A stretch of DNA of 64,000 nucleotides from Escherichia coli (GTDB lineage Bacteria > Pseudomonadota > Gammaproteobacteria > Enterobacterales > Enterobacteriaceae): assembly GCF_002854065.1 (NCBI RefSeq), contig NZ_CP024147.1. The stretch is one strand, 5' to 3'. Positions 41,101-47,100 of this stretch are shown piece after piece (the stretch's first letter is position 1; every line of letters starts with the position of its first letter). Position numbers: made by a program.

Positions 41101-44100
41101 GCGCTGTGGCTTGCTACTTCGCAAAGCCGCAAACTGGATAAAGGTGGCGTAGTTTATCGTCTCGATCCAGTCACTCTGGAAGTGACTCAGGCGATCCATA
41201 ACGATCTCAAGCCGTTTGGCGCTACCATTAACAACGCTACTCAAACATTGTGGTTTGGTAACACGGTAAATAGCGCGGTTACGGCGATTGATGCCAAAAC
41301 GGGAGCGGTGAAAGGGCGCCTGGTGCTGGATGATCGTAAGCGTACGGAAGAGGTGCGCCCGCTGCAACCGCGTGAGCTGGTCGCAGACGATGCCACAAAC
41401 ACCGTTTACATCAGTGGTATTGGTAAAGAGAGCGTGATTTGGGTCGTTGATGGCGAAAATATCAAACTGAAAACCGCCATCCAGAACACCGGTAAAATGA
41501 GTACCGGTCTGGCGCTGGATAGCAAAGGCAAACGTCTTTACACCACTAACGCTGACGGCGAATTGATTACCATCGACACCGCCGACAATAAAATCCTCAG
41601 CCGTAAAAAGCTGCTGGATGACGGCAAAGAGCACTTCTTTATCAACATCAGCCTTGATACCGCCAGGCAGCGTGCATTTATCACCGATTCTAAAGCGGCA
41701 GAAGTGTTAGTGGTCGATACCCGTAATGGCAATATTCTGGCGAAGGTTGCGGCACCGGAATCACTGGCTGTGCTGTTTAACCCCGCGCGTAATGAAGCCT
41801 ACGTGACGCATCGTCAGGCAGGTAAAGTCAGTGTGATTGACGCGAAAAGCTATAAAGTGGTGAAAACGTTCGATACGCCGACTCATCCGAACAGTCTGGC
41901 TCTTTCTGCCGATGGTAAAACGCTGTATGTCAGTGTGAAACAAAAATCCACTAAACAGCAGGAAGCTACCCAGCCAGACGATGTGATTCGTATAGCGCTG
42001 TAATAGACATGGGGGAGTTTGTCTTTCGTAGGCCAGATAAGGCGCTTGCGCCGCATCCGGCACGAACAAAGAGCACCTCGTCAGCAATATGAATTTGCCC
42101 GGCTCGTAGCCGGGCAATTTTGCAATTAACTCGCCGTTTCAGGCTTAAATGCAATATCCTGTTTTTCTTTATCTACTTCGACTACGGGCGCAGTGCTGTG
42201 AATTTCAGCAACGCGTTTGCGCACACCAAACCAGCCTATAACCAGCAGAATACCGATAATCGGCAGCGCCGCGATAGTATAAGTCCCGTTCGGGTAATCG
42301 AACGCCATCAGCACAAGGACACTCAGTAAAAACAGTAATGTCAGCCAGGAAGTGAAGGGCGCGCCAGGCAGTTTAAAACTGACATCCGCTGCTTTGCCTT
42401 CTTTAATCGCTTTACGCAGGCGCATCTGGCACACGATGATAAACGCCCATGAAGCGATGATTCCCAGCGACGCGAAGTTCAACACAATCTCAAATACGCG
42501 CGACGGCACCAGATAGTTGAGGAATACGCCGACGACATACACAACCAGTGTCGCCAGAATCCCGGCATACGGCACATGCTGACGACTCATTTTCGCCATA
42601 AAACTCGGTGCGGAACCGCCCATCGCCATTGAGCGCAGAATACGTCCGGTGCAGTACAGACCTGAATTCAGGCTGGAGAGGGCAGCGGTCAGCACCACAA
42701 TGTTCATAATGCTGCCGATATATGGCACACCCAGTTTAGAGAAAAACGTCACGAACGGACTTTGCCCCGCCTGATACGCGCTCCACGGCAATAACATAAC
42801 CAGCAACACCACGGAGCCGACGTAAAACAGGCCAATACGCCAAATCACACTGTTAATCGCTTTAGGCACCATGGTCTGCGGATCTTTACATTCTCCGGCA
42901 GCTGTACCCACCATTTCAATGGAGGCAAAAGCAAACACTACGCCCTGAATCAACACCAGCGCAGGCAGCAAACCGTGGGGGAAGAAGCCGCCATTATCGG
43001 TGATTAAATGAAAGCCAGTGGTGTTGCCATCCAGCGGCTGACCACTACCGAGGAACACCGTACCCACGACCAAAAAGGTCACAATGGCGAGCACTTTAAT
43101 AAGCGCAAACCAGAACTCCATCTCGGCGAACCATTTCACGCCGATCATATTCATGGTGCCAACGATGGTAAGTGCAGCGAGCGCAAAGACCCACTGCGGC
43201 ACGCCGCCAAACGCACCCCAGTAATGCATATACAGAGCGACGGCGGTAATATCAACAATCCCGGTCATCGCCCAGTTGATGAAGTACATCCAACCGGCAA
43301 CATAAGCGGCTTTCTCACCCAGAAACTCACGGGCATAGGAGACAAAGCTGCCACTGGAAGGGCGATGCAATACCAGCTCACCCAACGCGCGCAGAATAAA
43401 AAACGAAAACAGGCCGCAGATTAAATAGACCAGTGCCAGCGCCGGCCCCGCCATTTGCAGTCGGGCTCCCGCGCCTAAAAACAAACCAGTACCAATCGCA
43501 CCGCCAATGGCGATCATCTGCACCTGACGATTGCCCATTGCTTTGTGATATCCCTCTTCGTGGGCATTAAGCCAGCGGCGTTTCGCAGCGTGTTGCTCTG
43601 AAGTGTCGGTGTTGTGTTTACTCATTGCGCTCCCTGATTGCTTTAATGAAAAAAGTCTTTTATGTCGCCATGAACAATGTTTATTCATCCTGGCGATGAC
43701 AAGATTCACCATTATTCTTTATGGGTATAACTGTCGGCGCAGAATCCTACCTTTTATCGTGTAACGATGCAAAATAATCCCACTATAAATGTGAGGGGAT
43801 AAAGGCAGCTGGCGACAAAATAGCAACCTGATGAAATTATGACGGAAACAACCACTATTGGTTCGATGATACTCGACTGTCGCCGACTCTTTAGCCAATC
43901 GTTTGTCGCTCTGAGCGCAAGTGGTTGCAGTGGACACTGGTGTGGTTGGTTTTCGCTGATTATCATTGAATAGTGAGGGACCAGCGCATGAGTGGTTTCA
44001 GGGGTAATACGCCAAATACCAATACAATTGCTGATTAGAAATGCCAGTTGTCGAGGTCACAGAAAGTGCAAAAAATGTAAGAGTGATATCGGGTGACAAT

Positions 44101-47100
44101 TGTGCTATTGCCCAGCAGAAATTTTTTAAATTAGTACTGTTCCAGGGGCATTACAAACCTTAAAACATTACTTCAATATAATTAATGTGTATATCATTCT
44201 TGATATTAATTTATGAAGTGAATTTGATATATTCCGAATTCTTAATTTACATTACTAATGTATGGGACATAACGTTAAGATGGCTATGTGCAGATTAAGA
44301 TATCAGGGTGGGGCGGTAGCGTTTACAGATATTAATTAATTGATGAGAGCTATGTTATCCGCACAATCATTTACATCAGCTATTGATATTGAAGATAGAT
44401 AAATAAATATGCTGAGAATTAATGTTAAGGAATCGTAATGGGAAACTTTGATAACTTGCTTTGATTTCATTCTCTATGAAGATGATGTCATCAACACTGC
44501 ATAAAGTGGAAATATTGAACATCAAAGAGAACCATATTTAATAAATAATAACAGAGCGTTTGTGTTTATCTGAAAAATATCATTTCCAGGAGGTAGGATA
44601 TGTCATTAAGGAGAATGACATCTGGTGAATTAGCATTGGCCAGATCGATTTTTGAAAATACAATTGATTATAGTAAGGTATGGATCCACAATGAAAAATA
44701 TTTGCCGGGTCAAGGGGAAAGAACAGCGATGACCCCAAACGGGGAAATGTATTATCCTGATGCTGTTTATAGTTCAGATTATTCATCGCAAACAATGCCT
44801 GGTGATCGTGAAACAGTAGCAGGTGCTTCTCACTTGTTTATTCATGAAATGATGCATGTTTGGCAATATCAGAAAGGGTATGCAGTTAAGTTGCGTGGTT
44901 TATTTTCCTGGGCGGCAAATTATCATTACGATCTTAATTTACAGTCAATTTCTTCTTATTCCATGGAACAACAAGCATCTATAGTTGCTGATTATTGGCT
45001 ATTGATTAACTATGGACTGGTGGCTGATTTGGCAAATGTTAACTATGTAGGTGATACAACTGAATCCGTTAACACTCTATCGGAAAAATACAAAAAGGTG
45101 CTTAATTTATTTCCTGCGGGTGTCATATGAAGAGATTCTTTTTGTTTTTCTTTTTGTCGGGATGCACTGTTGGTGATTATGTTCGCCCATTGTTACCCGG
45201 TAATGTATATTTACAAGATGGACGGGTTTGTTCAAAACCAGACGATGGAGGTATTATTTCAAATTATATTTTATATGAAGGTAAATATGGCAATGCAATA
45301 AAGCTGAAAAGAGTAACAGGTCAGTTCGACCCCGTATGTATTGACATAAGTGAGCTATCTTCAGATGTTATTTATATCGGGCAATATATGCTCTCTTCCG
45401 GAAGTAAAAAAGAATACTATGGTTTTAGAATAATTAGATCCGGAGTACGTATTTTAAGACTTGATGATAACCATATCAAATAACAGATTAAAAATTTTAT
45501 TAGTTTCATTAATGTGCTTTAGGTGAATGTTTTCACCAGGTTAACATGACGGTGCATTCTTCAAGGCATATATGGTTGATAGTATCTTCAGTAGCTCGCA
45601 TAAGTATTGAGATGTTTTACGCCAGTTACGAATATATTGCATATTTTATTCTCTGTAAGATTTCTTATTAGCACTTAGCCATTTCTAGTTAAAAGGATTA
45701 ATTATGAGTTTTGCAGCTACAGATTATCCATCCGGCGCACTAACTGGATCGGGTACACATAACGTGACTTTGAGCGGCAGCGCAGTTCCTGATGGAATGT
45801 TACTGTTTGCAAGCTTAGGGGGTACAGAAACAGTAGGGGAACTATTTACTTATTCTATTAAATTAAAAACTCCTGACATCCTGAACCTGGGCTATGTTTC
45901 CCCCGCCGCAAACCTGCAGCTCAAACCGATGGTGGGCAAAGATCTGTGCGTCCATATCGAACTGGATGGCGGCGGAAAACGTTATATCAGCGGGCTGGTG
46001 ACGGCGGCACGCGTGGCTGGTCATCAAGGACGTTCGGTGGTGTATGAACTGCGGCTCGAACCGTGGTTAAAAATACTGACCCACACTAGTGACTACAAAG
46101 CGTTTCAGAATAAAAACGTGGTGGACATCCTGGATGAGGTACTGGATGAGTATCCCTGGCCAGTGGAAAAACGGCTGGTGGAAAATTATCCGACTCGCGC
46201 CTGGCAGATGCAGTACGGTGAAACAGATTTCGCTTTTATTCAGCGCCTGATGCAGGAGTGGGGTATCTACTGGTGGTTTGAGCACAGCGAGAACAGTCAC
46301 ACGTTAGTGCTGGCTGATGCCATTAATGTCCACAAGGCATGCGCAGATTCGCCGCTGGTGTGTTATTACCAGAAAGGGCTGAAACTGGACAAGGAGTTTA
46401 TCCATACCATCACAGCAAATGAAAGTCTGCGCAGCGGACAGTGGGTGCTGAATGATTTCGACTTTATGAAGCCGCGTTCACTGCTGAAGAGCACCGTGGC
46501 TAATCCGCGTGAAACCGGCCTTGCTGAATATGAGCACTACGAATGGCCGGGAGATTACTTCACAAAGAGTGAAGGTGAAATGCTGACACGCATTCGCATG
46601 GAAGAACAGCGTAGCCCCGGTAGTCGGGTACAGGGCAGCGGCAATATTCGTACCCTGATGACAGGTTTTACCTTCACCCTGGAAAACTATCCGACAGCCG
46701 AAGTGAACCGGGAATATCTGCTGGTACAGACCACGCTATTTATACAGGACAATGCGCAACACAGCGGCCAGGAGCAGCATTTCTCTTACTCAACCAGCTT
46801 TGAACTGCATCCCACCAGCGAAGTTTACCGCCCACAACGAACCCTGAGCAAACCCCACACTAAAGGCCCGCAGAGTGCCATCGTCACCGGCCCGGCAGGG
46901 CAGGAAATCTGGACAGATAAATATGGCCGGGTGAAAGTTCAGTTTGGCTGGGATCGTTACGGTAAGAATGACGAAAACAGCTCCTGCTGGGTCCGTGTCA
47001 GTTATCCGTGGGCTGGTAAAGGATTCGGTGGCATTCAGATCCCGCGTATTGGTCAAGAAGTACTGGTGGATTTCAAAAACGGTGATCCGGATTTACCGAT

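Follow-up and report, generated by a model that had tools for sequence, protein, structure and literature searches.

The ops elements of waaQ (rfaQ), wzx, wza, kps and hly, at which RNA polymerase pauses and the anti-terminator RfaH is loaded, are 12-mers on the non-template strand of untranslated leaders, lie 40 to 634 nt upstream of the first gene and head horizontally acquired, H-NS-bound operons for envelope polysaccharides or hemolysin. RfaH/ops control of type VI secretion system (T6SS) clusters has been demonstrated in enteroaggregative Escherichia coli (10.1101/2025.02.08.637259). The closest described system is the region c1882-c1889 of uropathogenic E. coli (UPEC) CFT073 (Hustmyer et al. 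2022, PMC9765446), in which the ops GGCGGTAGCGTA (1715753-1715764) is located 313 nt upstream of c1882 and adjoins ansP (c1878) and a yncG remnant (c1879/c1880). This region is H-NS-bound and silent in the wild type, and chromatin immunoprecipitation sequencing (ChIP-seq) revealed the occupancy of GGCGGTAGCGTA by RfaH in an hns stpA deletion strain (PMC9765446 Data set S2). Here we describe the same chromosomal locus in a stretch of 64,000 nucleotides of E. coli contig NZ_CP024147.1 (assembly GCF_002854065.1), referred to as the window, with the focus on the gap of 974 bp (43626-44599) between the start of ansP and the ATG (44600) of an open reading frame (ORF) for a HExxH protein of 176 amino acids.

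The gap consists of four parts, namely the ansP control region, yncG debris, a conserved module and an AT-rich leader. The core of the module probably represents a promoter-proximal ops on the non-template strand of the rightward transcript of a T6SS auxiliary operon encoding a VgrG2b-like metallopeptidase, a lipoprotein and VgrG. A preliminary description of the window had considered that the promoter and regulatory sites for the first two of these genes may be located in the gap; the signal identified is more specific, comprising an ops/RfaH site and a conserved -10-like hexamer. The features of the module and the operon are as follows.

44166-44345 (+): head module of vgrG islands, containing a putative promoter and a JUMPStart-like/ops element (from conservation and paralogues)
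44224-44253 (+): best-scoring sigma-70-like promoter candidate, TTGATA-18-TACATT (prediction only)
44276-44281 (+): conserved -10-like hexamer TAAGAT, with an implied transcription start near 44287-44290 (from the comparison of alleles)
44287-44311 (+): JUMPStart-like 5' extension of ops (TGTGCAGAT...TATCAGGGTGG)
44312-44323 (+): ops element GGCGGTAGCGTT, putative RfaH loading and pause site (from an 11/12 match, conservation and orthology)
44324-44599 (+): AT-rich untranslated leader of 276 nt, with 5-13 stop codons in each forward frame
44600-45130 (+): first operon gene, encoding the HExxH protein, a homologue of the C-terminal metallopeptidase effector domain of VgrG2b as judged from its sequence
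45127-45483 (+): gene for a lipoprotein of 118 amino acids, its start overlapping the stop of the effector gene
45704-47191 (+): truncated vgrG, ORF of 495 amino acids with the Pfam domains Phage_GPD and Phage_base_V

The probable ops element and its predicted promoter

The element GGCGGTAGCGTT matches the ops consensus GGCGGTAGCGTG, as quoted in 10.1101/2025.02.08.637259, at 11 of 12 positions and is the sole match with at most one mismatch in the window. It is located on the same strand as the genes between 44600 and 47191, 277 nt upstream of the first ATG, and no conserved ORF extends over it. For the recruitment of RfaH the bases G4, G5, A7 and G8 have been shown to be essential and C3 and T6 to be important, T11 being the pause base (PMC5995543). 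All of these recruitment bases (C3, G4, G5, T6, A7, G8) as well as T11 are intact, the predicted pause at U11 corresponding to position 44322. All relatives share the element unchanged. The present analysis establishes it as a sequence together with its strand, position, conservation and paralogues, and it appears rather likely that 44312-44323 is a true RfaH site at the head of the operon.

In a comparison with the eight sites bound by RfaH in CFT073, the surroundings of ops were found to share two boxes with the JUMPStart sequences of CFT073 wzx, wza, kpsM and rfaQ, CAGTGC at a distance of about 27 nt on the upstream side and CAGG immediately preceding ops. Only these boxes, as (C)AGTGC and CAGG, are shared with the canonical 39-bp JUMPStart (CAGTGC..TGGTAGCTGT.AAGCCAGG directly 5' of ops), the middle of which (TGGTAGCTGT.AAGC) corresponds to AT-rich sequence in the window. 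Since the internal/upstream GGTAGC is absent as well, the element was classified as an ops with a divergent JUMPStart-like extension. A 17/19 match to the JUMPStart-like core, TCAGGGTGCAGCGGTAGCG at 54044-54062 (+), was also detected on the opposite strand of the gene annotated as narH (nitrate reductase Z beta-subunit); it shows no flanking homology and is probably due to chance.

As the ops must be transcribed, a transcription start upstream of 44312 is required. All E. coli alleles have a hexamer (TAAGAT, TATGAT or TAAAAT) whose end lies 30-31 nt before ops. It reads TATGAT in CFT073 and TAAAAT in Superficieibacter, where an 8-nt insertion extends the distance to 38 nt, and it is the top-scoring promoter in the copies of H10407, CFT073 and Superficieibacter. 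Transcription is accordingly predicted from the sequence to start about 25 nt before ops, comparable to the 27 nt at rfaQ. The position of the best-scoring candidate TTGATA-18-TACATT is not conserved in the K-12, cusS and CFT073 alleles. By eye no spacing match to a sigma-54 promoter, a tRNA fragment or a phage-type attachment (att) site was recognised, and ARAGORN found nothing.

The leader behind ops carries the Shine-Dalgarno sequence AGGAGG (44588-44593) at its 3' end. Of five E. coli relatives four match it at 77-78% identity, with an insertion or deletion at 44526-44555, and it could not be aligned to the K-12 and cusS leaders above the level of shuffled sequences (z = 1.9, -1.0 and -0.5).

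In the mechanism proposed for this operon a weak sigma-70 promoter inside 44224-44290, usually occluded by H-NS, would start transcription. About 25-50 nt further on RNA polymerase would reach ops and pause at U11, and the exposed non-template strand would recruit RfaH. Replacing NusG, RfaH would then enable the polymerase to overcome H-NS filaments and Rho and to cross the 276-nt leader and the AT-rich genes. For the CFT073 orthologue others have demonstrated that H-NS binds and that, in the absence of hns and stpA, RfaH occupies the site; the position of the promoter, the binding of H-NS in the present strain and the loading of RfaH on the T12 variant of ops are inferred.

Several observations weigh against this reading. 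T replaces the consensus G at position 12 of this allele and of all window-type relatives, and the TG dinucleotide, in which G12 promotes pausing, is common to the K-12 targets. Variants with A12 favour the reading, being bound by RfaH and functional in CFT073; according to the same data no RfaH-bound site of that strain has T at position 12 (PMC9765446). The three GGCGGTAGCGTT sites of CFT073 are all intragenic and unbound. The exchange G12C abolishes the pause at U11 in vitro while recruitment is retained (PMC5995543). A single ops-like match somewhere in 64 kb arises in 20% of shuffled sequences, and the case therefore rests on conservation and orthology. Promoter prediction yielded the two candidates listed above without enrichment over shuffled sequences (5 matches versus 5.4), the -35 region belonging to the conserved TAAGAT is poor in this allele and, as vgrG is truncated, the operon may be decaying.

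The CFT073 locus, retrieved for comparison, contains ansP, a yncG pseudogene, the module, PAAR and vgrG, and its core (CAGTGCAGATCATGTCATCAGGGTAGGGCGGTAGCGTA) aligns with that of the window. In CFT073 the setting is likewise AT-rich, the locus is a cryptic RfaH target, and the distances from ops to the first gene are similar (313 nt versus 277 nt). The two loci differ in position 12 (A in CFT073, T in the window), in the first gene (PAAR versus VgrG2b-like metallopeptidase and lipoprotein) and in the truncation of vgrG in the window; the leaders behind ops are unrelated, that of CFT073 containing a fragment of an ISAs1 end. Compared with the elements of waaQ (rfaQ), wzx, wza, kps and hly, the putative ops shares the location in an untranslated leader at the head of an acquired operon, and its cargo is related to the T6SS instead of the envelope or hemolysin. 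The ops1 and ops2 sites of the Sci1 T6SS (10.1101/2025.02.08.637259) and the hcp-tssH ops of CFT073 are similarly intergenic and mediate RfaH-dependent read-through of T6SS genes. These sites are situated between structural genes inside the main clusters, whereas the ops in the window is promoter-proximal and heads an orphan vgrG cargo island. A further relative is h3R, the hcp3-vgrG3 intergenic region of enterohaemorrhagic E. coli, studied in EDL933 and described in 2026 without mention of RfaH or ops (PMC13141884). It is non-coding, located upstream of vgrG in an H-NS-silenced T6SS, limits the expression of vgrG and contains a perfect ops GGCGGTAGCGTG (L011 24770-24781; NC_002695.2 ~264769-264780, O157 Sakai). 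Unlike the locus in the window h3R is GC-rich and part of the main cluster, and no homology extends beyond the ops 12-mer.

Since both the principle and the CFT073 orthologue have already been published, our analysis extends known biology and does not constitute a discovery. New are the T12 allele, the VgrG2b-like effector/immunity cargo and the use of the same head module by the cusS-vgrG islands and K-12 rhsE'. If the assignment holds, a vague label of AT-rich, H-NS-silenced DNA is replaced by a testable control point of 12 nt, and the toxin/immunity/vgrG module as well as the ansP and cusS vgrG islands present in most E. coli are predicted to require relief from H-NS and RfaH. The orphan T6SS cargo islands would thereby join the anti-silencing circuit of lipopolysaccharide, capsule and hemolysin, and the conserved non-coding block retained by K-12 before the dead rhsE would be explained.

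Conservation of the module and alternative readings

Five relatives within E. coli share the gene order of the window; among them the module is 96-97% identical, compared to 77-89% for the flanking non-coding DNA and 90-92% for the ansP coding sequence, which makes it the best-conserved non-coding stretch. A sensitive search with the AT-rich half of the gap as query showed most E. coli genomes to contain a second copy of about 145 nt (44178-44325) at 74-77% identity (4613 genomes, with a median of two places). This second copy adjoins cusS, 340-480 nt upstream of vgrG, and the copy of K-12 is located in the spacer between yncH and the rhsE pseudogene (rhsE'). The homology to the cusS and K-12 copies begins at about 44178 and ends at 44325. 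Eight diverged copies, including those of E. whittamii and Superficieibacter electus, have the blocks CGTTAA.AT, GTGCAGAT and ATCAGGGTGG.GCGGTAGC.T in common, and the core of the module is invariant in the ansP-locus, cusS-locus, E. whittamii and Superficieibacter copies. Among the representative genomes, those of E. whittamii, Escherichia sp. E1V33 and Superficieibacter electus alone contain the G-rich 20-mer of the core.

A different interpretation holds that the module is only a relic, inherited from the head of a once-functional vgrG-rhs island, and that the locus is dead and permanently silent in this strain. It would fit the loss of the vgrG C-terminus, the symE pseudogene and insertion sequence element, the absence of a following rhs gene, the position of the same module before a pseudogene in K-12, the cryptic state of the CFT073 locus in wild-type cells and the removal of ops by an ISAs1-family element in hundreds of genomes. 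On the other hand, the ORFs of the HExxH protein and the lipoprotein are intact, 98% conserved and preceded by a strong Shine-Dalgarno sequence, the module surpasses all other non-coding DNA of the locus in conservation, the same head precedes intact vgrG genes in relatives, and an immunity gene would be useful alone. Taking both sides into account, a mere relic seems possible though unlikely.

It is considerably less probable that the gap contains a generic H-NS-silenced spacer regulated by its AT content alone, the conserved block of which serves as a high-affinity H-NS nucleation site or as the operator of another factor rather than as an RfaH site. The GC content is among the lowest of the window, the orthologues are H-NS-bound, and sites for FlhDC (in vitro genomic systematic evolution of ligands by exponential enrichment, SELEX) and PhoB (ChIP-seq) are known from published work on the K-12 spacer. 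In addition, the high-affinity motif of H-NS is resembled by the box TTGATATATT (44224-44233). However, the most invariant part of the block is the G-rich 20-mer, which is not H-NS-like, its core equals ops and is RfaH-bound in the orthologue, the H-NS motif TCGWTWAATT occurs without enrichment (26 times against an expectation of 22.5), and the PhoB site of K-12 falls in a part of the leader that is absent from this allele. Least probable of all, and hardly to be expected, is a reading of the core as the gene of a small protein (M(A)MCRLRYQGGAVAFTDIN, 44281/44287-44340) or of a small or cis-acting RNA; an unannotated small RNA in the gap had been named as one possibility in the preliminary description. 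The frame through YQGGAVA is open in all copies and two substitutions of the cusS locus fall on third codon positions, but conservation of the start codon is lacking, with ATT or ATA in most relatives and none in E. whittamii, the product would range from 17 to 41 amino acids in length, and changes of S/C to L/R/T/K occur beside invariant nucleotides. An RNA is contradicted by the lack of Rfam matches in the gap, by folding z-scores of -0.95 to +0.88 on both strands and by a consensus structure of only -4.6 kcal/mol with 0 compensatory pairs and no terminator following. As a further candidate the inverted repeat of an ISAs1 element was considered for the core and rejected, only CAGGG being shared with the ends CAGGGAAAGATCA and CAGGGCAAGATTA.

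Cargo genes and possible mobility of the module

The HExxH protein is similar to the VgrG2b of P. aeruginosa (PDB 6H56, E 2e-20, phmmer) and on the basis of this sequence similarity is regarded as a homologue of its zinc metallopeptidase effector domain; neither a Pfam nor an NCBIfam family was assigned. The lipoprotein gave a sub-threshold match (30.7 bits, cutoff 43) to NF045617 ('putative T6SS immunity periplasmic lipoprotein') and is probably the immunity protein. The vgrG gene is intact in the five relatives (L020-L024; 1995 nt, 664 codons) and, in a genome 99.9% identical to the window, bears the tag 'missing C-terminus' from the Prokaryotic Genome Annotation Pipeline (PGAP). Behind it the window contains a symE pseudogene and an ISAs1-family transposase, with the following features in this part.

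47314-47442 (+), 47508-47582 (+) and 47304-47513 (-): IsrA, SymR-like and symE features (Rfam, annotation)

The Hfq-binding small RNA IsrA (Rfam match of 119 bits, gathering threshold 51) is antisense to the pseudogene of the symE-family toxin, and a sub-threshold SymR-like match (39 bits) was detected at the 5' end of the IsrA/symE feature. Together they look like the remnant of a type I toxin-antitoxin system inside the wreck of an Rhs locus.

Across the copies of the module the head is constant and the cargo is variable. A metagenome scan yielded 118 matches, of which 114 represent E. coli types already known and 4 are GC-rich chance matches. Upstream of the module the 114 copies carry ansP/yncG(/yncH) or cusS, yncG being matched also in those of the same locus type as the window, and downstream vgrG, PAAR-vgrG or HExxH-lipoprotein-vgrG where the contig reaches a recognised gene; on a few contigs only an ISAs1 transposase follows. 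The only matches in the plasmid collection were mislabelled pieces of E. coli chromosomes. In Superficieibacter electus, the sole instance found outside Escherichia, the ops core, the GTGCAGAT box and TAAAAT (L008 3830-3935, minus strand) head a run of AT-rich ORFs, which matched no Pfam family and do not resemble the cargo found in E. coli.

The divergence from the five relatives L020-L024 is mosaic, with 90-92% identity in ansP, 96-97% in the ops module and 95-99% in the effector and lipoprotein genes, and the leader, otherwise 77-78% identical, reaches 99.6% in one strain. This pattern implies recombination breakpoints near 44166, 44346 and 44600 and a more recent exchange of the island genes than of the flanking core genes.

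The element ISEc1 of the ISAs1 family, with the ends CAGGGAAAGATCA and CAGGGCAAGATTA, is present in the window at 47683-48974. Several hundred E. coli genomes, which are devoid of ops and the entire cargo (44309-47682), have its left end fused precisely to the CAGGG (44304-44308) that otherwise precedes ops (L003 6667-6690); the 90-95% identity band of the genome comparison comprises 678 records. The microhomology TCAGGG is shared at the junction, and chance is an unlikely explanation. In CFT073 (L012 ~2866-3000) most of the leader consists of an ISAs1 left-end fragment that begins 7 nt past ops. Copies of the CFT073 type furthermore differ in the number of units (n = 2, 3 or 5) of a pentanucleotide repeat, (GTGCA)n, located between the -10-like hexamer and ops (L128, L098); the repeat might be a slippage tract within the region transcribed first.

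Tentatively, and with considerable doubt, the promoter-plus-ops cassette 44166-44345 might be viewed as the portable, fixed head of RfaH-dependent T6SS cargo islands, in which the cargo is swapped, insertions of ISAs1 (H-repeat) elements act as an off switch and T12 represents a deliberately weak-pausing ops with a different tuning. Such a cassette would span the ansP and cusS loci in Escherichia, with the ops core preceding unrelated AT-rich genes in Superficieibacter; its cargo would be vgrG, PAAR-vgrG or effector-immunity-vgrG, and elements of the ISAs1 family would repeatedly strike the neighbourhood of CAGGG and ops.

Composition of the gap and the ansP side

The locus is the ansP-rhsE locus of E. 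coli, its gene order having been read from annotated genomes 99.6-100% identical to the window, and the gap was partitioned by comparison with 5426 complete E. coli genomes. The features on its left side are the following.

42126-43625 (-): ansP (annotation of 99.9%-identical genomes)
43626-43821 (-): upstream region of ansP (promoter/5' untranslated side), 196 nt in 5388 of the 5426 genomes
~43830-44075 (+): decayed fragments of yncG, a glutathione S-transferase homologue (tblastn, blastn)

The preliminary description had proposed about 1 kb of very AT-rich DNA lacking a convincing ORF, with several A/T tracts. The extent and the lack of coding capacity were confirmed: the longest ORFs within the gap have 72, 70, 53, 49 and 44 amino acids, and no Pfam match was obtained for the four tested (72, 70, 44 and 40 amino acids). 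The GC content is 36.4% compared to 48.7% for the window and is unevenly distributed, with 40-45% in 43626-44100 and strong AT-richness only from about 44100 to 44599 (28.9% in 44160-44560, about 30.5% in the right half); 44101-44600 ties for the lowest GC content among 1270 windows of 500 nt. The low-GC tract extends past the gap through both downstream genes to about 45700, and equally AT-rich tracts (30-32% GC) occur elsewhere in the window (about 33300-33850 and 60950-62900). The A/T tracts found little support: three homopolymer runs of at least 4 nt lie in the AT-rich half and seven in the other half, the AT-richness of the right half being mainly due to mixed TA/AT steps. Nor does the gap form a single leader, since about 196 bp belong to ansP and about 250 bp are yncG debris, and no more than about 310-340 nt can form a 5' leader.

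At least 80% of the gap is carried by only 214 of the 5426 genomes, and three alternative cargo sets were observed. A strain-variable presence and an AT content far higher than in the host are characteristics of horizontally acquired, H-NS-silenced DNA, and the right half is probably acquired DNA of this type, as proposed earlier. Data from related strains agree: the yncH-rhsE spacer of K-12 contains an RNA polymerase holoenzyme site and H-NS according to genomic SELEX (PMC3946193), the upstream region of rhsE is marked as H-NS-bound in a PhoB ChIP-seq study (PMC10294691 Table 1), and yncG, yncH and ydcD are flagged as H-NS-bound in the data set of Hustmyer et al. (PMC9765446), in addition to the CFT073 orthologue. 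The comparison with K-12 places the island boundary at about 44166-44178, where the homology to the other vgrG islands begins, and not at the side of ansP.

The upstream region of ansP (43626-43821) can be aligned to K-12 and CFT073 and contains a block of 60 nt (43716-43775) conserved at 99-100%. A terminator-like hairpin followed by a T-run is located at 43779-43795 on the ansP strand, about 155-170 nt upstream of ansP. It adjoins the conserved block, and in K-12 and CFT073 its stem differs (CCCCTT/AAGGGG) with the pairing retained. Hairpin and block may represent an ansP leader or attenuator.

In K-12 the gene following ansP is yncG. In the window residues 61-78 of the K-12 protein were matched at 43830-43883 (tblastn, E 3e-4) and residues 164-200 at 43963-44074 (E 4e-5), the latter split over two frames and interrupted by a stop; the nucleotide identity to K-12 yncG is 69-76% (blastn). 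The remnant lacks the start, residues 1-60 and about 79-163, and contains frameshifts and an internal stop; yncG is thus a pseudogene relic without an intact ORF. The debris is only 81-89% conserved among the relatives, and together with the next 65 nt it forms the least conserved part of the gap (80-89%). A conserved protein-coding gene, which the preliminary description had named as evidence against its proposal, is approached by this debris, but the gene is dead and not conserved as coding sequence. A putative YncH remnant was dismissed as a chance match of just 6 residues. The 'hypothetical protein' of 44 amino acids annotated by PGAP at 43839-43973 in some relatives corresponds to a decayed yncG fragment, which gives annotators reason to drop this call.

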